Made by a program: the position numbers and the translations under genes
In this document: positions 2,353-47,970 of the stretch, piece after piece
Layout of the letters: the number at the start of each line of letters is the position of its first letter
How positions within the stretch are numbered: the stretch's first letter is position 1
Notes under the pieces: generated by a model
Databases searched by the model: none
The model's input: the letters and a program-made list of their open reading frames with translations, nothing else
What the model was told of the DNA's origin: nothing
IMG/VR virus record: IMGVR_UViG_3300027917_000005
Location: 1-50,048 of that record
From: a virus
Taxonomy: Duplodnaviria > Caudoviricetes
Length of the DNA stretch: 50,048 nt
Reading direction: 5' to 3' (one strand)

Positions 2353-2547
2353 ATGGCTGAAGTAATTAATATAAATTATTCAAGGAGAAAAAGAAAGGAG
2401 GTAGATGATCACTCAGTGAATGCAGATAGAATTCTGCTCAGACTGTACCGAAGAGGAATTGATCAGATCTACTGCATGGATTGTATTAATCGCTGTGACA
2501 AAAGAGGAACAGCACATTGTTGGTGGAACTTTGTTAGTGTTAAGTGA
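2353..2547 (+). CDS. Small Cys-containing hypothetical protein
   Basis: CxxCxxxC...C pattern; in operon orientation. Confidence 0.5.
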   Translation: MAEVININYSRRKRKEVDDHSVNADRILLRLYRRGIDQIYCMDCINRCDKRGTAHCWWNFVSVK

Positions 2548-2568
2548 AAACGTCAAAAATTGACGTTT
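2548..2568. repeat. Dispersed palindromic site, copy 2 of 9
   Basis: AAACGTCAA-AAA-TTGACGTTT (perfect arms). Confidence 0.92.
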
Positions 2569-2586
2569 CTGACAAGGAGGTTAAGA

Positions 2587-3060
2587 ATGATCAGAGAGCC
2601 TGTTAAAATTGAGGGATTCAGCCGGGTTCAGATCGAGGAGAATGGCAAAATAGTTGGGGACTCCGGCTGGGTTGGACCAAACCAGATTACGAACCTTGGG
2701 TATCTGAACTATCTGGTGAATCTGCTTGGTGCAGGTGCTGGTTCTAAGTATGTGAGCTATGTAGCTCTGGGTACTGGAACTGCACCCAATGCTACCCATA
2801 CCACTCTTGACGGAGAGATCATGGATAGCACTCAGCGGAAGTCAGTAACATTTGCCAGTAATGGCAGTACGACTGCTGAGTTCACTGCAACCTTTGCCAG
2901 TTCAGATAACTTCCTAACTGCTGCAGCTAACCTGAGCAACATTGGGCTGTTTGCAGCTACAACAACCAACGACACCTTGTTTGCTGGGAATACTTACACC
3001 TCGAGTTCCTGTGATACGAACCAGAATGTCAATGTGACATATCAGATTAGGTTCTCCTAA
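2587..3060 (+). CDS. Putative structural protein (fibre base/attachment-like)
   Basis: ATG after AAGGAGGT; NQITNLG...VALGTG...LDGE...IGLF pattern resembles phage fibre-base proteins. Confidence 0.5.
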   Translation: MIREPVKIEGFSRVQIEENGKIVGDSGWVGPNQITNLGYLNYLVNLLGAGAGSKYVSYVALGTGTAPNATHTTLDGEIMDSTQRKSVTFASNGSTTAEFTATFASSDNFLTAAANLSNIGLFAATTTNDTLFAGNTYTSSSCDTNQNVNVTYQIRFS

Positions 3061-3071
3061 GGAGGTTATTT

Positions 3072-3719
3072 ATGCAAGTAGATGATTTGAGTCAGTCCCA
3101 AGGAATCCTTATTGATTTAGGCTGCGGAGAGAATAAGCAGAAGGGATTCGTGGGAATTGATGCCAGAGATGTTGAGGGAGTAGATATTGTCCATGACTTG
3201 GAAGTATTTCCCTGGCCTTTGCACGATGAGTGTGCATTGACTGTGATTGCAAGTCATCTTATTGAACACATAAAGCCCTGGCTCTCTATTCAGTTTATGG
3301 ATGAAATATGGAGAGTTTTGAAGATGGGAGGAGATGTAGCATTGTCCACTCCGTATGCAGGGAGTGCTGGGTATTGGCAAGACCCTACTCATTGCAATGG
3401 CTGGACACAGGCCAGTTTCCAGTATTTTGATCCTAGGTATCCGTTATACCAGATATATAAACCAAAACCTTTCTTGATTAGGAAGGGATATCCGGTCTGG
3501 CAAGCAGCAGGAAATATGGAGATTGTTCTCACAAAGATTGCTGAGGACACAGTTGATCATTGGAGAGAGAAAGGGTTTACTATTATCCCTGAATCTGCTG
3601 ATGAGGCCACTGAGGAAGTCATTGCTAAGGAAATTACAAAGTCTGCTCCAGACCTTGGGATTTGTGTATCTGATGAAATTAAGATAACGGATAAGATGGG
3701 AGGTGGTAAAAATGGCTGA
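3072..3719 (+). CDS. Class I SAM-dependent methyltransferase (Methyltransf_11-like)
   Basis: IDLGCG motif I, SHLIEH, EIWRVLKMGG, DPTH. Confidence 0.85.
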   Translation: MQVDDLSQSQGILIDLGCGENKQKGFVGIDARDVEGVDIVHDLEVFPWPLHDECALTVIASHLIEHIKPWLSIQFMDEIWRVLKMGGDVALSTPYAGSAGYWQDPTHCNGWTQASFQYFDPRYPLYQIYKPKPFLIRKGYPVWQAAGNMEIVLTKIAEDTVDHWREKGFTIIPESADEATEEVIAKEITKSAPDLGICVSDEIKITDKMGGGKNG

Positions 3720-4665
3720 TACTCCGATCCCTAAGGCTGAGGAAACCAAACGGCTCCAAGATGGGTACAGAGCTGGGGTTGAAGTAATTTCTAAGAACAC
3801 TCCACCTACCAGTAGAATTATGGTGGGGATTCCAATGACTGGATTGTTGCGGTCTGAGTGGGTATTGGCTCGATATGGGCAGGTGATTCCTTGCAACTGG
3901 AGCCAACTTGATGCCATTCAGTGGTTAGACCAAACCAGCCCGATTGACTTCATGGTGGCGGACGCCAGGAATATTGTTGTACAGCAATTTATTGAGCACG
4001 GCTACGACTGGTTGTTCTTCTTAGATCATGATGTAGTCATTCCTCCGGATACTGTCCTGAGGCTCAATCAGCGGATGCTGGAAGCAACTGTTCCTGTTTG
4101 GAGTGGGCTGTATTTTACAAAGTCTAGGCCCTCAGAGCCTTTGATCTATCGAGGTAGAGGTACAGGATACTATGCTAACTGGAAGTTTGGAGATGAGGTG
4201 TGGGTAGATGGTATCCCAATGGGCTGTACTATGATTCACAGGTCTATCCTGAAAGTCATGTGGGATGAATCTGAGCAGTATAGCGTTGTCCCTGGAAGGG
4301 TCGTAAGAAGGGTGTTCGAGACTCCAGCTAAGGTCTGGTGGGACCCTGAGAAGAGATACTGGTGGACTATGACTGGTACTGAGGATCTGGCATGGTGTAC
4401 AAGGATCATGAATGAAGGGATATTTGGGAAAGCTGGATGGCCACAGTATGAAGGAAAGGAATACCCTTTCATGGTAGATACTGAGATATTCTGTCGTCAT
4501 ATTGACTTTGATGGAATACAGTACCCCGCTGCTTTGGAGCAAGTTCAGTTCATTCCTGACAAGGAGGAAGACAATGAACGTAAGAAAGGGACTATATTTG
4601 ATCCCCGCTTTGGTGTTCGTCCTGCTACAGTGCGCTCATCTCCAGACTCACCAGGGAAAGTGTGA
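3712..4665 (+). CDS. GT-A fold glycosyltransferase (GT2-like)
   Basis: VGIP, ARN, FFLDHD (DxD), GCTMIHR, TED motifs; ATG after GGAGGT. Confidence 0.8.
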   Translation: MADTPIPKAEETKRLQDGYRAGVEVISKNTPPTSRIMVGIPMTGLLRSEWVLARYGQVIPCNWSQLDAIQWLDQTSPIDFMVADARNIVVQQFIEHGYDWLFFLDHDVVIPPDTVLRLNQRMLEATVPVWSGLYFTKSRPSEPLIYRGRGTGYYANWKFGDEVWVDGIPMGCTMIHRSILKVMWDESEQYSVVPGRVVRRVFETPAKVWWDPEKRYWWTMTGTEDLAWCTRIMNEGIFGKAGWPQYEGKEYPFMVDTEIFCRHIDFDGIQYPAALEQVQFIPDKEEDNERKKGTIFDPRFGVRPATVRSSPDSPGKV

Positions 4666-4900
4666 CGAGGCACTGAAGAAGTACAACAATGCTATGGCAA
4701 CGTACAGGACTTATTACCCTGTCCAAACTCCGGAGACTCAAGCTAAATGGAAGCAGGATATTGCTCCTAAACTTGATACAATGAGTAAAGCTGTTGATCT
4801 CTGTCCACAGGATGTCACTGGCTATGACTCAACTATGCTGCTGTATGGAGAGGTAGAGAAGCTGCTTCTTCAGTATAGTATAAAGATGCAAGGAGGGTAA
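4574..4900 (+). CDS. Putative lipoprotein (possibly spanin-like)
   Basis: MNVRKGLYLIPALVFVLLQC lipobox-like signal; AAGGAGG RBS. Confidence 0.55.
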   Translation: MNVRKGLYLIPALVFVLLQCAHLQTHQGKCDEALKKYNNAMATYRTYYPVQTPETQAKWKQDIAPKLDTMSKAVDLCPQDVTGYDSTMLLYGEVEKLLLQYSIKMQGG

Positions 4901-4901
4901 T

Positions 4902-5090
4902 ATGGACTTGGTACTAACTCCAGAACTTATTCTGGCACTCTCATTTGCAGTGAGAGATATGATTGGAAGTCTCCTCCAGGATCTTTCAGCTATGACACCC
5001 GAGGAGAGAGAGGCTTGGAGAACACGCCAGTTGATCAAGAAGGCTGAGCACGATGCCTGGCTAGAGCAGCATCTGAGAGGAGGAGATTAA
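4902..5090 (+). CDS. Small hypothetical protein with hydrophobic N-terminus
   Basis: AGGAGGG RBS; coupled to neighbours. Confidence 0.6.
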   Translation: MDLVLTPELILALSFAVRDMIGSLLQDLSAMTPEEREAWRTRQLIKKAEHDAWLEQHLRGGD

Positions 5091-5365
5091 TGGAAATATC
5101 CTTTGGTGGATATGCTATGCCCTTGGTTCTGTCACTGATTCTAGCATTTGCTTATAAACTGACTGGAGAAGCAATAAGTGACAGATGGAAGGCCCTTATC
5201 TCTGTAGCTGCGGGACTACTTCTTGGCAATCTTGGAATAGCCTATAATGGAATGGAGTGGACTATTCAGAATGTAGTAGACTTCAACATCTATGGCTTTG
5301 CGGTTGGGTTATCAGCTATTGGCCTGTATGAGCTGCAGAGAACAGTAACAAACCCGAGGGGCTAG
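5090..5365 (+). CDS. Putative holin
   Basis: 91 aa with three hydrophobic helices and GLSAIGLYE C-terminal pattern. Confidence 0.6.
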   Translation: MEISFGGYAMPLVLSLILAFAYKLTGEAISDRWKALISVAAGLLLGNLGIAYNGMEWTIQNVVDFNIYGFAVGLSAIGLYELQRTVTNPRG

Positions 5366-43662: not shown

Positions 43663-44080
43663 CGCTCTTACCTCCTTCTATGAAGAGGAGTTCCTCGGCA
43701 GTTAATTCTCCCTCGATAGCTTCTATCTCCTCAAGGGTTAGCCCATCCTTCTTCATTAGGGTTAGCCTCCTCCATCTATCTCTTTCCTGTTTAATCTCTA
43801 CCCTCTCAGTAGTGCCATCAGACCTCTTTATAAAGCCCACTAAAGGAGTTGTCATAACCTTTCTGATTCCTACCCATAGCAGGCCATCAGCTACCCTCTT
43901 GAATGGGACCAGGGTAGAGGCAGTTACAGGGTCAATCCCCTTGAGAATTTCAACTTCCTTCTTGATAGACTTAAGAAGCTGTTTTTGTTGCTCCTTGCTC
44001 TCAACAGGAAGGTGGAGTTCCTCTCCTGTTTTAGAAGTAAGGACTTTCTCTATCCAGCTTATCAGTATATCTCTATTCAC
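43640..44080 (-). CDS. Hypothetical protein, paralogue of 44395-44850
   Basis: GTG start after AGGAGGG; LMKKDGLTLEEI. Confidence 0.65.
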   Translation of the reverse strand: MNRDILISWIEKVLTSKTGEELHLPVESKEQQKQLLKSIKKEVEILKGIDPVTASTLVPFKRVADGLLWVGIRKVMTTPLVGFIKRSDGTTERVEIKQERDRWRRLTLMKKDGLTLEEIEAIEGELTAEELLFIEGGKSDESEEIK

Positions 44081-44090
44081 CTTCCCTCCT

Positions 44091-44423
44091 TTAGAATTGG
44101 GAGTAATAGTCTCCCTCATCTGGAAAATATCCATCCTCGTAAGGATCATGAGATGCCTTATCAAAAGCTGCATCATAAGCCTCTTCATCTTCCATAAGCT
44201 TTTCGACAAAGTCCTCACTACACTTAACCCACTCCCCTTTATCATCTTCTGCGTAGGCTTCCAAGATCTCAAGGAATGGAGGCTCCTCGGGAGAGTGCTT
44301 TGTCTGTCTGATCCTTGGATAAAGGATAAACTTAGTTAACGCCACCTGCTTCCCAAGGAATGATATCTGGGGAGCATCATCAGGACTATAGGTCTCAGGT
44401 CTGTTCTTGGGAAAGGTTATCAT
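44091..44423 (-). CDS. Acidic hypothetical protein
   Basis: In operon orientation; GAGGAGG upstream. Confidence 0.55.
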   Translation of the reverse strand: MITFPKNRPETYSPDDAPQISFLGKQVALTKFILYPRIRQTKHSPEEPPFLEILEAYAEDDKGEWVKCSEDFVEKLMEDEEAYDAAFDKASHDPYEDGYFPDEGDYYSQF

Positions 44424-44850
44424 TTTTAGCCTCCTCCCCGAAGTATGCAGCTATCTCCTCCTCAGATATTCCATCCTCTCGCATCAATTGTTTCTGTCTT
44501 TCCTTGTCACTGAGGAACTCAACAGTGATACGAGTGTCATCTGTGGATTCTGTTACTTCCTCCCTTACAGTGAGATCAACCAGCTTCTTAACCTTACCAT
44601 CCTTATCAAAGATGACAGGAGGAGGAACAGGGGCTAGCTTCTCAAGGACTAAGATATGCTTACCTCCCTGAGAACTTCGGGTGACTCCAATATCAGAGCC
44701 GTCTAATGATTGTTTCTGCCATTGAACCCTCTCTCGATAGAGGGATGCCCTGAGAGATTCCATTTGCTTGAAGCTAGTGCAAGTGATTAACATCTTCTCC
44801 CCTGCCTCTAACTCCAAGGCATTATCAAAGATGATCTTCGCTCTTGACAT
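44395..44850 (-). CDS. Hypothetical protein, paralogue of 43640-44080
   Basis: AAGGAGGT RBS; LMREDGISEEEI. Confidence 0.7.
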   Translation of the reverse strand: MSRAKIIFDNALELEAGEKMLITCTSFKQMESLRASLYRERVQWQKQSLDGSDIGVTRSSQGGKHILVLEKLAPVPPPVIFDKDGKVKKLVDLTVREEVTESTDDTRITVEFLSDKERQKQLMREDGISEEEIAAYFGEEAKNDNLSQEQT

Positions 44851-44872
44851 CTGATTTACCTCCTTTCTTCCT

Positions 44873-44974
44873 TTAGAATAGACTGTGCAGAATATGGGCT
44901 CCGAAGTACAGCAGCGCCAATACTATAGTAATAGCCGATACCAAGTCCAGAATCCTATCTCTCTCATTATCCAT
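44873..44974 (-). CDS. 33-aa membrane peptide
   Basis: MDNERDRILDLVSAITIVLALLYFGAHILHSLF; AAGGAG RBS. Confidence 0.5.
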   Translation of the reverse strand: MDNERDRILDLVSAITIVLALLYFGAHILHSLF

Positions 44975-45028
44975 ACTTTCTCCTTTTAGGGGAGGGTAGA
45001 TGTCAAGCACCCACCCACCCGCCTTGGA

Positions 45029-45214
45029 TTAGAGTCCCAGGTCGATCTCGGGGAGCTTAATAGTTATCTCCTTCGGGATATTACTGGTTGGAATCAGCTT
45101 ATCAACATAGATTCCTATAGAGTAGCCCAATGTCTCAGCTTGGAACTTCCTCTTCTTTGGGGTGCTGGGTTTCTGTACAGCTTTCACTTCTAGGTTCTCT
45201 GTTATTTTGTCCAT
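45029..45214 (-). CDS. Small hypothetical protein
   Basis: ATG after AAGGAGG (MDKITENL...). Confidence 0.55.
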   Translation of the reverse strand: MDKITENLEVKAVQKPSTPKKRKFQAETLGYSIGIYVDKLIPTSNIPKEITIKLPEIDLGL

Positions 45215-45512
45215 AATCCCCTCCTTGTCTTGGAAACTCGGAGTCATAAATATCCCATGACTCCTTATCCTTTGCCTTATAATGTCCTATTACTAGATGA
45301 AACTCAGGACCTCCTCCAAAACAGATGAAAAAAATATCTCCGAAGAACCCAGGCCCATCGGAGATATAGTTTCTAATAACTCTCACTCGAGGATTATCTC
45401 TTAGCTCAGCATGAAGCTCTACTTTTTCAGATAAATCTAAGCCCCAATTCTCAGCTAATAAAGATGCAATCTTCTCGAGCTCATCCTTCTTTGGGATATA
45501 TAACTTACTCAT
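45135..45512 (-). CDS. Hypothetical protein
   Basis: AAGGAG RBS; YISDGPG motif. Confidence 0.6.
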   Translation of the reverse strand: MSKLYIPKKDELEKIASLLAENWGLDLSEKVELHAELRDNPRVRVIRNYISDGPGFFGDIFFICFGGGPEFHLVIGHYKAKDKESWDIYDSEFPRQGGDYGQNNREPRSESCTETQHPKEEEVPS

Positions 45513-45705
45513 TCCAGGCTCCTTCCCTTTCTACCTCATCATGGTGCTTGCATCGGCTTCCGGCTTTCCTAAGCCGCCAGAGCCAATGAGGTCAAGTGCA
45601 GGTGTGCTTACCTTTCTTCAGCACAGTTTTATATGGCTCAGCTAGTCCCTCATACCAGAGAGAATAGGAGCCATCCGGCATCAGGGTAATCAAGTATTTG
45701 CTCAT
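45505..45705 (-). CDS. SWIM-type zinc-finger protein with in-frame TGA (candidate selenoprotein, Sec38)
   Basis: MSKYLITLMPDGSYSLWYEGLAEPYKTVLKKGKHTCT-U-PHWLWRLRKAGSRCKHHDEVEREGAWNE; AGAGGT RBS; TGA at 45592-45594 occupies the second Cys of CxC...CxH. Confidence 0.7.
45551..45588 (-). promoter_or_regulatory. Putative bacterial SECIS element
   Basis: CATTGGCT-CTGG-CGGCTT-AGGA-AAGCCG-GA-AGCCGATG hairpin starting 3 nt after the TGA. Confidence 0.6.
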
Positions 45706-45847
45706 AGCGAATACCTCTTGTTAAGAGCAGCTGCCTGTAATATGTAGCTAGATGGAAATCACAGACGCAATACCCCTCTTGTACAGGATCAGCCATCCAA
45801 CTAAAGGAAACTACTCGAAGACAATTTGGGCAGGTTACTGAGATCAT
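45650..45847 (-). CDS. Small zinc-ribbon-like protein
   Basis: CPNC...CVC; AAGGAG RBS; ATGA overlap with upstream gene. Confidence 0.55.
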   Translation of the reverse strand: MISVTCPNCLRVVSFSWMADPVQEGYCVCDFHLATYYRQLLLTRGIRYEQILDYPDAGWLLFSLV

Positions 45848-46035
45848 TTATACTCCTTGTGGGTATCATAATCTCTGTGGTGGGTTTCATAATCCTTGAA
45901 TGCAGAGTCAATGTTTTCAAGCCCGTTCTCCTCCAGAAAATCATCTAGTATCTGAGCAGCCTGATCTTCTGACCCCGCCAGGACACTAACAGAGCCATGC
46001 TCTGTGTAAGTATATCCTATTCTCCAGAGTTTCAT
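45844..46035 (-). CDS. Small acidic hypothetical protein
   Basis: AAGGAGG RBS. Confidence 0.65.
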   Translation of the reverse strand: MKLWRIGYTYTEHGSVSVLAGSEDQAAQILDDFLEENGLENIDSAFKDYETHHRDYDTHKEYK

Positions 46036-46063
46036 AATTCCTCCTTTAGCATAGACCCAGTCA

Positions 46064-46084
46064 AAACGTCAATTTTTGACGTTT
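46064..46084. repeat. Dispersed palindromic site, copy 9 of 9
   Basis: AAACGTCAA-TTT-TTGACGTTT. Confidence 0.92.
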
Positions 46085-46091
46085 CTGAGTA

Positions 46092-46182
46092 GCGGGCAGG
46101 TGGTGGGCTAGCGCCAGAGGTTTACCATCCCTGCTTGGTTCATAGGCTGGGCGCCATCACCTAGGCATCCCTGCCTGCCCGC
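46092..46182 (-). ncRNA. Candidate structured RNA
   Basis: Intergenic; 9-bp closing stem GCGGGCAGG/CCTGCCCGC with nested GGTG/CACC and GCGCC(C)AG/CTGGCGC stems. Confidence 0.35.
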
Positions 46183-46190
46183 GTTGAAGG

Positions 46191-46376
46191 TTAGCGGTTA
46201 TCTCTCCTTGCACGCCTCGCCAGTTTATTCCTCCGTCTAGCTTTCGCTAGGACTCTTGTCATGTACGGAGTTGGTGCGTGCGGGCCTGCCGCATACATCA
46301 GGAGAAGCTGTTCCTGATGCTTGTTTGGGGCAGGTGCTGCCATTGCCTTTCTTAATGCCTTCTTAAGAGTACCCAT
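46191..46376 (-). CDS. Small basic protein
   Basis: AGGAGG RBS; RRRNKLARRARR tail. Confidence 0.6.
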   Translation of the reverse strand: MGTLKKALRKAMAAPAPNKHQEQLLLMYAAGPHAPTPYMTRVLAKARRRNKLARRARRDNR

Positions 46377-46609
46377 TAGAGATTCCTCCTATTCGAAGTC
46401 TTGCACCATCCGGCTGCTGCCTTGATACAATCTTCACAGAACTTCAGTGATGCCATCGAGTCAGTTGTTGCGATGGCTATGTGGTAGGTTCCCTTGGGGA
46501 TAGAGATTCTGCATCCTCGACAGATTCTCTTGGCCTTTCCTAATTCAACAGTAAGGAAACCAAGGATGCAGACCTTGTCCGGTCTTGGTTTGTCGTGTAA
46601 GCCTATCAT
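46376..46609 (-). CDS. Small zinc-finger protein
   Basis: CRGC-x-x-x-IPKG...CEDC. Confidence 0.6.
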   Translation of the reverse strand: MIGLHDKPRPDKVCILGFLTVELGKAKRICRGCRISIPKGTYHIAIATTDSMASLKFCEDCIKAAAGWCKTSNRRNL

Positions 46610-47050
46610 TTAGCACCTTACCTTTCTGGTGACCTCACAAATACTTCCCTCCACGGGGAATCCAGCCATCACCAGAATGTTCTTGACTATATCAACACTC
46701 TGGTAGTGCTTCTCCAGCTCGTGATTGTAGGTGCGAATTATTACCTTGCATCCGGAGGAAGTTGAACAGAGGTCGTACTTGTTGGAGCCTATCCTGATGG
46801 TTGATGAAGCAATGTAGGTTCCGTCAGATTTGATGTAGTTGAATCTGCCGGGGATGGATCGCCTGATGTTATCAAGCATTGTAATTGTCTCGCTCCATGG
46901 GTCAGTCTCATAATGAATGAGCTTCCCATCGAAGAAGACTTCAATTTGGGTCTGGTGATAGGTTACAGGAAACTTGCTAGAGATCTCCTCTCTAGGGCAG
47001 TTGATGTTGATTTCTGTCTCTAACTTCTCGAACTTGCCAAAGCCTGACAT
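46610..47050 (-). CDS. Hypothetical protein
   Basis: AGGAGG RBS; abuts neighbours. Confidence 0.6.
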   Translation of the reverse strand: MSGFGKFEKLETEININCPREEISSKFPVTYHQTQIEVFFDGKLIHYETDPWSETITMLDNIRRSIPGRFNYIKSDGTYIASSTIRIGSNKYDLCSTSSGCKVIIRTYNHELEKHYQSVDIVKNILVMAGFPVEGSICEVTRKVRC

Positions 47051-47061
47051 GGTAGCCTCCT

Positions 47062-47448
47062 CTACAAAATGGTTACTAGCACGCCCTTCTTTCTGGCGTA
47101 TCTAACAGTTGCCCATGTTCCTGATCTTAGTACCTCCTTTCTTGTGTGTGGGCAGGCGATGAGGCGGTCAACTTCATCAACCATCTCTTTGTTTCTGATG
47201 AGATAGTCCTTCGGTTCTCTTGTCTCGTCCCCATCTAGGAATGCCCGGAAGTTGGGTTTAGTGGGCGGATGGATTATGAGCTTCAGCTTGAATAGTCGTG
47301 CCAGATTGTGAAAGCTCTCATCTGCCCCAACACAGTCACCATGGTGACAGCTGTCTATCTTGCTCCTTAGTTGAGCCAGGAGTTGACGCACTGCCCTGTA
47401 TTGGACAGGCGTCATTCCCAGCCGGGAGCCTGTGAATCCTATTTTCAC
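47062..47448 (-). CDS. SLOG-superfamily (YspA/DprA-like) nucleotide-binding protein
   Basis: IGFTGSR, HGDCVGAD, RNKEMVD, SGTWATVRYA. Confidence 0.8.
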   Translation of the reverse strand: MKIGFTGSRLGMTPVQYRAVRQLLAQLRSKIDSCHHGDCVGADESFHNLARLFKLKLIIHPPTKPNFRAFLDGDETREPKDYLIRNKEMVDEVDRLIACPHTRKEVLRSGTWATVRYARKKGVLVTIL

Positions 47449-47970
47449 TTAGTGCTCCTTTATCCATTGCTTGAATACATTCCTGACTTGCTTAGCCTTT
47501 GGGTGACGCCAGTGAACCATGTTGCCCAGGATGTACATTAACCTCTCCTTGAGCTCATGATCTGGGGCTATGAGAGCCATCATGACTCTCCTGATTGCCC
47601 AATTAAGGGATGTGGCGTGGGACTTGGTGTCAGAGACCATTATTCTCAAGTGCTCCCTCACGTCCTCTGCTGATGGGCTAATCTGTACATCAGCAGTTAC
47701 CTCTTCCCAGTCAAACCTAATGATCCTGTCCTTGAATGTATCTCCGGTGTTGCAGCGGAGGGTCGCTATTGCTCTTCTTTGCATCATCCTGGATGGTGGG
47801 TACTTACTTCCGGCACTTCCAATGTATCTCCACTTGCCTACACAAAATGCCTGGATCAGTTTGTCTCTGACTCTTGCTTTGAGAATGCACGGATTATCTG
47901 TCCTCGGATCACAGCCGCCGTACTCCTCCTTGACAATCTTGTCCAAGGTGGCTTCAATTAAGTTTTCCAT
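47449..47970 (-). CDS. Hypothetical protein
   Basis: GGAGG RBS; YILGNM-x-HWR motif. Confidence 0.6.
   Translation of the reverse strand: MENLIEATLDKIVKEEYGGCDPRTDNPCILKARVRDKLIQAFCVGKWRYIGSAGSKYPPSRMMQRRAIATLRCNTGDTFKDRIIRFDWEEVTADVQISPSAEDVREHLRIMVSDTKSHATSLNWAIRRVMMALIAPDHELKERLMYILGNMVHWRHPKAKQVRNVFKQWIKEH

Follow-up and report, generated by a model that had tools for sequence, protein, structure and literature searches.

A TGA codon in place of an invariant cysteine in a small phage SWIM-type gene: null allele or selenoprotein candidate

In bacterial selenoprotein genes of the fdhF type, an in-frame UGA aligns with a Cys in homologous proteins and a stem-loop directly 3' of the UGA fits the bacterial SECIS (bSECIS) consensus. 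As given in the legend to Fig 2 of PMC13188914, the consensus comprises a loop of 3–9 nt, an upper stem of 4–16 bp, a G within the first two loop positions, a spacing of 16–37 nt between UGA and loop, and a minimum free energy (MFE) of −7.5 kcal/mol or lower. The same source places selenocysteine (Sec) mainly in redox active sites and mentions it as possibly binding metal in a few families associated with transport (PMC13188914). In the metagenome screens described in PMC1976440 and PMC1088965, a gene that has Cys homologues and a SECIS-like fold but is known from one sequence only ranks as a ‘selenoprotein candidate’, whereas a ‘new selenoprotein’ takes two or more different sequences in which the in-frame TGA is conserved.

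Among viruses, the available text of a review on recoding gives no cases but two glutathione peroxidases of poxviruses, those of molluscum contagiosum and fowlpox, which are virus-encoded and carry a UGA for Sec, the fowlpox gene having its SECIS within the coding region (PMC8310308). Full-text literature searches turned up no phage selenoprotein.

The phage open reading frame (ORF) described here resembles the bacterial genes in that its in-frame TGA aligns with a Cys of its homologues and in that a consensus-fitting stem-loop follows directly; it differs in being known from a single TGA-bearing sequence, in that the TGA falls on a presumed structural zinc ligand, and in being phage-borne. 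From the poxvirus enzymes it is further removed, since these belong to eukaryotic viruses, use a eukaryotic SECIS and are captured cellular redox enzymes, with a sequence, fold and decoding machinery unrelated to those of the phage ORF. The reading favoured here, with moderate confidence, is that of a lone opal (TGA) null allele in a small accessory early gene.

The SWIM-type ORF and its family

The window, by which is meant the whole stretch of DNA analysed, is a complete, stand-alone virus record of 50,048 bp from an uncultivated tailed phage and has direct terminal repeats. The phage encodes a large terminase, a portal, a major head protein, a family-A DNA polymerase, a primase, an exonuclease, a ligase and a ParB-methyltransferase fusion, and the ORF of interest (the SWIM ORF) sits among small orphan genes, in a block without any Pfam match. 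The minus strand is the coding strand for the genes at 32–48 kb. The features of the locus, from upstream to downstream, are:

45650–45847, minus strand: upstream 65-aa orphan ORF (CPNC...CVC), no Pfam family; overlaps the SWIM ORF start by its final 56 nt
45713–45718, minus strand: Shine-Dalgarno-like AGAGGT, 7 nt 5' of the ATG (45705–45703)
45505–45705, minus strand: read-through SWIM ORF of 66 sense positions and a TAA, its codon 38 being TGA
45595–45705, minus strand: 37-codon piece read in the standard code, MSKYLITLMPDGSYSLWYEGLAEPYKTVLKKGKHTCT; table 11 lists the ORF as 45592–45705 (37 aa)
45598–45600, minus strand: Cys36 codon TGC, first presumed zinc ligand, an invariant column
45592–45594, minus strand: in-frame TGA, codon 38, on the second CxC Cys, next base C (TGAC)
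45551–45588, minus strand: hairpin starting 3 nt past the TGA, with an 8-bp lower stem, an internal loop and a 6-bp upper stem
45544–45552, minus strand: Cys52-Lys53-His54 codons TGC AAG CAC, third and fourth presumed zinc ligands, 3' of the TGA
45135–45512, minus strand: downstream 125-aa orphan gene with its own GGAAGGAG site; no Pfam family and no IMG/VR relatives

The first-pass annotation had proposed a minus-strand ORF with the ribosome-binding site AGAGGT and an ATG at 45705, open for 28 further codons beyond the TGA and ending over the start of the next gene, and all of these elements are present. The read-through translation is MSKYLITLMPDGSYSLWYEGLAEPYKTVLKKGKHTCT[TGA]PHWLWRLRKAGSRCKHHDEVEREGAWNE, in which the 37 sense codons before the TGA end in ...GKHTCT, and the TAA (45507–45505) lies within ATGAGTAA, whose ATG (45512) opens the 125-aa ORF. 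Under table 11, the ORF listing used here shows only the 37-aa ORF at this locus.

An HMMER search of 1.84 billion representative sequences with the SWIM ORF product gave 67 matches at E ≤ 1e-3, ten of them at E ≤ 1e-10, most being free-standing proteins of 57–120 aa. The 30 homologues inspected align with the SWIM ORF end to end and share a stretch that runs from an N-terminal (D/K)Y-x-I-T-x-x-P-D-G-x-Y-S-V-W through to a C-terminal GAWNE. When 46 homologues were aligned with the phage sequence left out, just two columns proved invariant, both of them Cys of CxC, and C52 and H54 were conserved in at least 90% of sequences. The column opposite the TGA is Cys in 46/46, which bears out the proposed position of the TGA at the second Cys of the SWIM CxC...CxH, and the count is biased at this column because the set consists of predicted proteins, in which TGA-interrupted members cannot appear. 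The nearest homologue, P0071 (69 aa), starts with MSK and ends with GAWNE, as does the SWIM ORF, and is identical to it at 26/37 positions ahead of the TGA and 20/28 beyond it, with Cys opposite the TGA. It clusters with P0003 and P0072 as the nearest homologues, on Logan contigs of up to 6.1 kb.

If codon 38 is read as Cys, the 66-aa product matches the Pfam SWIM family (PF04434) at E 8.4e-4 and 19.3 bits, just below the cut-off of 19.6 bits; 28 of the 46 homologues match the same family at E ≤ 0.01, with a top E of 2.6e-7. SWIM zinc finger membership is thus borderline by Pfam score and, judged by family context, appears clear. The ORF has the C-x-C-x13-C-x-H spacing of the family, with C36, C52 and H54 encoded and TGA at position 38, so that the CxC-xn-CxH signature is complete only with the TGA read as Cys or Sec. 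An AlphaFold model built from the family alignment (pLDDT 91.2) predicts four strands (residues 5–8, 14–17, 25–30 and 33–36) followed by two helices (39–45 and 53–61), and puts the CxC at the junction of strand 33–36 and helix 39–45. Apart from the TGA as second ligand and the score, the phage ORF differs from PF04434 in being a free-standing protein of ~66 aa with a conserved GAWNE tail rather than a domain of a larger protein, and in having no solved-structure relative in the PDB, either by fold (Foldseek, none at E ≤ 0.001) or by sequence search. Because the homology runs end to end, the CxC is invariant and the model is confident, the SWIM ORF is a real gene of a real family in which the TGA replaces an invariant, presumably zinc-binding Cys.

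These comparisons bear on two readings. That all 46 homologues, the nearest one included, have Cys opposite the stop fits a null allele. The principal rival is a phage-encoded selenoprotein, in which host SelB and Sec-tRNA(Sec) would use the hairpin 3 nt past the UGA and Sec would serve as the second ligand; this is possible but, in our view, doubtful. It gains from the pairing of the TGA with an invariant Cys and from the conservation of both flanks with the natural stop kept, and it is weakened by the Cys of the nearest relatives and by the position itself, where a structural zinc ligand is presumed and not a redox-active Cys; zinc fingers are also absent from the roles of Sec described in the available text of PMC13188914, a point in favour of a null allele. 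A plain null allele, for its part, sits less easily with the 28 codons after the TGA being as conserved as the 37 before it, and with the natural stop still overlapping the next start.

Provenance and rarity of the TGA

The TGA is real DNA. The same base is found in the IMG/VR record, in a JGI metagenome contig (L089) identical over 201/201 bases that is probably the same assembly, and in the independently built Logan contigs of three runs (X1, X2 and X3), which were compared over 45000–46200 as consensus contigs in which minority alleles are invisible. Two of them, X1 and X2, derive from what is probably the source sample, with word depths of 21 and 17 and zero differences; the third run, from another sample and another study, has a word depth of 7 and covers 45000–46060 with 0 differences. 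A check against sequencing error, advised in the first-pass annotation, therefore returns the same base in assembled contigs from three runs and two samples, at the level of the consensus. With zero differences in the contigs of three runs, an assembly slip is unlikely. A sequencing or assembly error over a true TGC or TGT has in its favour that all of the evidence comes from assembled contigs and that X1 and X2 share their probable source sample, and set against the agreement between separately built contigs, including those of a run from a separate sample and study, it is very improbable.

Both samples that hold the TGA allele are labelled marine sediment metagenome. Since it forms the consensus of two samples, each from its own study, the allele is no rare defective variant, which counts against a null allele and for Sec decoding; both samples carry one strain, so their agreement leaves the age of the mutation uninformed. 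Also in favour of Sec, a preprint reportedly connects genetic code expansion with deltaproteobacteria of marine sediment.

No close relative of this phage region lies within reach of the searches made. A megablast of 44000–47500 against 50,697 GenBank phage records and a tblastn search of GenBank phages gave no match, a word-index protein search gave no candidate relatives of the locus, and scans of IMG/VR with the read-through protein and two neighbouring proteins gave no relatives. In the 80 loci that have the 128-aa neighbour gene, neither the SWIM ORF nor any of eight other local proteins queried has a relative (best E 0.06). Portal relatives in IMG/VR amount to seven loci, the two closest being ~7-kb fragments, and a search of three of these records (the two fragments and a 41-kb contig) gave no match. 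Portal identity to cultured phages is 24–26% in the best 15 of 422 records and below 60% in all 422; at no more than 26% identity to cultured phages of various Proteobacteria, the portal is too distant for a host call. The window contains no tRNA genes and, over its whole length, no Rfam family at gathering score; the phage therefore has no tRNA-Sec, which is in keeping with a null allele.

Further TGA-bearing members were sought in DNA directly, because databases of predicted proteins cannot hold TGA-interrupted members. Two IUPAC DNA patterns were used, both validated on the phage window first and both covering the CxCPH[WYF]..R..CKH subtype only. The pattern TGA CCN CAY TDB ... MGN ... TGY AAR CAY gave six matches in IMG/VR, none of which is a family member on translation, and a fixed-spacing TGA pattern with an upstream Cys codon gave 0 matches in 185,579 species genomes. 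With TGY in place of TGA, the fixed-spacing pattern gave 19 matches in 17 loci of IMG/VR and 30 loci in the species genomes, and 49/49 TGY matches are open SWIM-type ORFs. With no family member from the TGA scans against these 49, the phage ORF is the only TGA case of its subtype seen. The lack of a second TGA member argues for a null allele and against Sec. The first-pass annotation had looked to homologues with Cys or TGA at this column for support, and had named a lone nonsense allele among Cys homologues as the outcome that would overturn it: Cys is there in 46/46, a TGA homologue is found neither in IMG/VR nor in the species genomes, and the overturning outcome is in part what is seen. 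Likewise, a conserved in-frame TGA in at least two sequences is not found, L089 being the same sequence.

Elsewhere in this genome TGA is a regular stop. Among 65 greedy gene calls, which cover 95% of the genome, the stops are TAA in 27, TGA in 22 and TAG in 16; the portal, primase and ligase genes are among those ending in TGA, usually with few codons to the next in-frame stop. A code with TGA reassigned (tables 4 and 25) is thereby ruled out, and a genome-wide code change is excluded, as the first-pass annotation had also maintained. The only other same-frame pair of ORFs across a TGA, 2353–2547 and 2560–3060, was rejected as two genes, the second having AAGGAGG and an ATG at 2587. The ORF at 3703–4665, with its 26-codon extension, was likewise set aside as an in-frame TGA candidate.

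The regular use of TGA, with five of the 22 TGA-terminated genes ending in TGAC, again suits a null allele. Among termination contexts UGA-C is the weakest in E. coli, and phage Qbeta makes use of readthrough at UGA. A leaky stop independent of Sec, at which near-cognate insertion (of Trp, possibly Cys) at UGA-C would make the allele a hypomorph rather than a null, accordingly draws on the C that follows the TGA, and residual use would be in line with the natural stop and the frame still intact downstream. This reading is improbable: a finger with Trp in place of an invariant zinc-ligand Cys would probably not function, no observation here needs readthrough, and TGAC is not special in this genome because it ends 5/22 of the TGA-terminated genes.

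The hairpin 3' of the TGA

The 8-bp and 6-bp hairpin with an AGGA loop 21 nt from the TGA, as first described from the sequence, exists. Its lower stem pairs 45588–45581 with 45558–45551, which are the codons for His40-Trp41-Leu42 and Ser50-Arg51-Cys52, and the loop lies at 45570–45567. Over the 50 nt after the TGA, this two-stem structure folds at −19.3 kcal/mol against −19.7 for the MFE alternative. Scored with our own implementation of the published consensus, the hairpin satisfies all four bSECIS constraints, with a 4-nt AGGA loop that has G at position 2, a 6-bp upper stem, a spacing of 21 nt and −20.6 kcal/mol over 60 nt. This is the outcome expected of a selenoprotein gene, and the fit to every published constraint counts against a null allele. 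A search of 45300–45900 against Rfam gave no SECIS or other relevant match at E ≤ 10, which is a point against Sec.

How far the hairpin departs from chance depends on the null model chosen. At 3,000 random positions of the genome the bSECIS pass rate is 32.4%, with 4.9% passing at −15 or below and 0.5% equalling the phage site, and 0.52% of the 33,330 50-nt windows genome-wide are as stable as the hairpin. Synonymous recodings fold at least as well in 4/5,000 cases when drawn from genome codon usage and in 1.8% of 17,973 when GC-matched, and dinucleotide shuffles do so in 21/200 (71 nt) and 12/200 (61 nt). The hairpin is also the stablest among 46 family sequences. This stability, in the top 0.5% of windows and the top 0.08–1.8% of synonymous recodings, speaks for Sec and against a plain null allele.

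The same structure is by several measures non-specific. It has no strand preference, because the antisense strand of the region folds at −18.0, and hairpins with a better z lie less than 300 nt away, at 45625–45700 (z −2.69) and 45320–45390 (z −2.09), compared with −1.64 for the TGA hairpin. The hairpin at 45320–45390 carries a U7 tail. Among 45 distinct Cys-coded relatives 15 pass bSECIS and three reach −15 or below; the stablest, L103 and L105, fold at −20.3 and −17.2, none exceeding the −20.6 of the phage, and L105, which has no TGA, gives a synonymous-resampling p of 0.005. In the printed folds, as read by eye rather than by script, some 7 of 15 distinct Cys-coded relatives have a stem closing over the interval that the lower stem spans in the phage. 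Taken as a whole, the hairpin is unusual, at about 1 in 25 to 1 in 200 depending on the null, and non-specific. The claim of a SECIS-like hairpin accordingly holds as a fit to the consensus, a test that discriminates weakly when 32.4% of random positions pass it and so do 15 of the 45 Cys-coded relatives. The comparable folds of neighbouring hairpins, the antisense strand, random positions and Cys-coded relatives support a null allele, and the lack of strand preference, the hairpin-rich surroundings and the contribution of the family's conserved codons to the fold all weigh against Sec.

Consequences of the TGA for the gene

The likeliest course of events, as we see it, would begin, in one member of a family whose proteins measure 65–117 aa, with a third-base transversion in the second Cys codon (TGY to TGA) that created the stop. 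Most ribosomes would then terminate after 37 residues, and the product, holding one of the four zinc ligands, would presumably be unfolded and non-functional. The downstream 125-aa gene would still be translated via its own ribosome-binding site, and polarity would be limited because that gene keeps its GGAAGGAG site a few bases before the ATG. The hairpin would be incidental and in part a product of conserved codons, those for Pro-His (CCN CAY) pairing with the Cys codon of CKH (NNA UGY), and the remaining pairing would be due to Arg, Gly and Ala codons rich in GC, in surroundings where hairpins abound. On this account termination presumably dominates and the SWIM gene is presumably dispensable.

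Because the part 3' of the TGA has not decayed, such a mutation would have to be recent. The unchanged 3' conservation leaves two options, a recent event or continued translation of the part past the TGA, and this ambiguity keeps the Sec reading alive. The null allele also has to absorb a coincidence. Single-base nonsense routes fall on the three Cys codons in 3/37 cases (8%) and on codon 38 in 1/37, and a Cys-codon hit (8%) together with a hairpin this stable (2–4%, the rate among family members or GC-matched recodings) would be expected a few times in a thousand under a plain nonsense allele, whereas both the TGA on a Cys codon and the stable hairpin are expected under Sec decoding. Against this, the locus was chosen for that very coincidence among very many windows, and it is a single sequence, with no second TGA member beside 49 Cys-coded matches.

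Of the selenoprotein anatomy set out in the first-pass annotation, the CxC...CxH finger, the TGA on an invariant Cys, the intact and conserved 3' frame and a hairpin of bSECIS consensus all hold, and a second TGA member is what is missing; the borrowing of host SelA/B/C/D that it envisaged is a conjecture. The field's own screen would list the locus as a ‘selenoprotein candidate’ (PMC1976440, PMC1088965, as far as their available text goes). As a selenoprotein gene, the SWIM ORF is then a candidate and not a demonstrated case: the Cys/TGA pair and the SECIS-consensus fold are found, and the TGA occurs in one sequence rather than two. The full form of this reading, a first phage selenoprotein consisting of a free-standing SWIM finger, with a SECIS in the coding region tuned by synonymous codon choice and decoded by host SelB, is tentative at best and, on present evidence, rather unlikely.

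If the TGA is a nonsense allele, the locus represents the ordinary loss of an accessory phage gene, as a broken member of a known family. It would then also serve as a caution that a TGA in a Cys column together with a ‘SECIS-like’ fold is easily obtained, when 8% of nonsense routes lead to the former and the consensus for the latter lets through a third of positions. If Sec were truly inserted, the product would be the first bacteriophage selenoprotein and the first case of selenocysteine at a zinc-finger ligand position, and its C-x-U...C-x-H site might be a more redox-sensitive zinc or metal switch. The TGA would in that case be a clue, obtained from sequence only, that the host of the phage decodes Sec, and an early phage function would be tied to the selenium or redox state of that host.

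Overlap at the start of the SWIM ORF

The SWIM ORF (45505–45705, minus strand), a small SWIM-type zinc-finger gene with TGA as codon 38, overlaps the upstream 65-aa ORF (45650–45847, minus strand), an orphan that carries a CPNC...CVC arrangement and ends at 45650, by 56 nt (45650–45705), with the two read in different frames. Phage genes that are coupled do not usually overlap by so much. Across the overlap the SWIM frame is coding, as is shown by its N-terminus KYLITLMPDGSYS, which is conserved in the family; the tail of the 65-aa ORF may therefore be non-coding.

Local hairpins around the SWIM ORF

Two local hairpins on the minus strand were compared with dinucleotide shuffles:

45633–45675, minus strand: the strongest hairpin of the locality (z −2.69, −21.8 kcal/mol)
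45330–45367, minus strand: 10-bp stem-loop with a U7 tail, inside the 125-aa ORF (45135–45512)

The first lies within and just past the 56 nt that the 65-aa ORF shares with the beginning of the SWIM ORF, was equalled in stability by 3 of 200 shuffles, and could affect expression of either ORF. The second, located in the orphan gene downstream of the SWIM ORF, has a 10-bp stem with arms AUAUCUCCGA...UCGGAGAUAU followed immediately by U7, and its minimum free energy of −20.1 (z −2.09) was matched in 8 of 200 shuffles. With its U7 tail it resembles an intrinsic terminator, placed here midway through coding sequence; it was not among the hairpins listed by a simple terminator scan of the minus strand.

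Neighbouring genes and related fingers

A small CxxC...CxxC protein is encoded upstream of a SWIM gene in the window and in two distant metagenome contigs, L090 and L091:

Window 46376–46609, minus strand
L090 565–768
L091 605–823

Pairwise BLASTP gave 33% identity across 39 aa (E 3e-5); the synteny of a zinc-ribbon gene with a SWIM gene is weak.

Further upstream is what appears to be an accessory gene exchanged widely:

47062–47448, minus strand: 128-aa protein, PHROG 289, labelled 'GTP-binding domain'

The protein has 104 IMG/VR relatives at 38–53% identity, and across 80 compared loci the contigs carrying them shared nothing else with the SWIM region of the window.

In L106, an IMG/VR giant-virus MAG contig, three tandem SWIM-type CxCPHF...CKHL units at 4711–5157 share one long ORF; a giant-virus bin therefore also holds the same finger, there in the form of a repeat array.

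A same-frame ORF pair

At 2353–3060 (plus strand), a Cys-rich 64-aa ORF closed by TGA precedes a 166-aa ORF that continues its frame. These are two genes and not one read across the TGA, because the second has its own start, AAGGAGG with an ATG at 2587.
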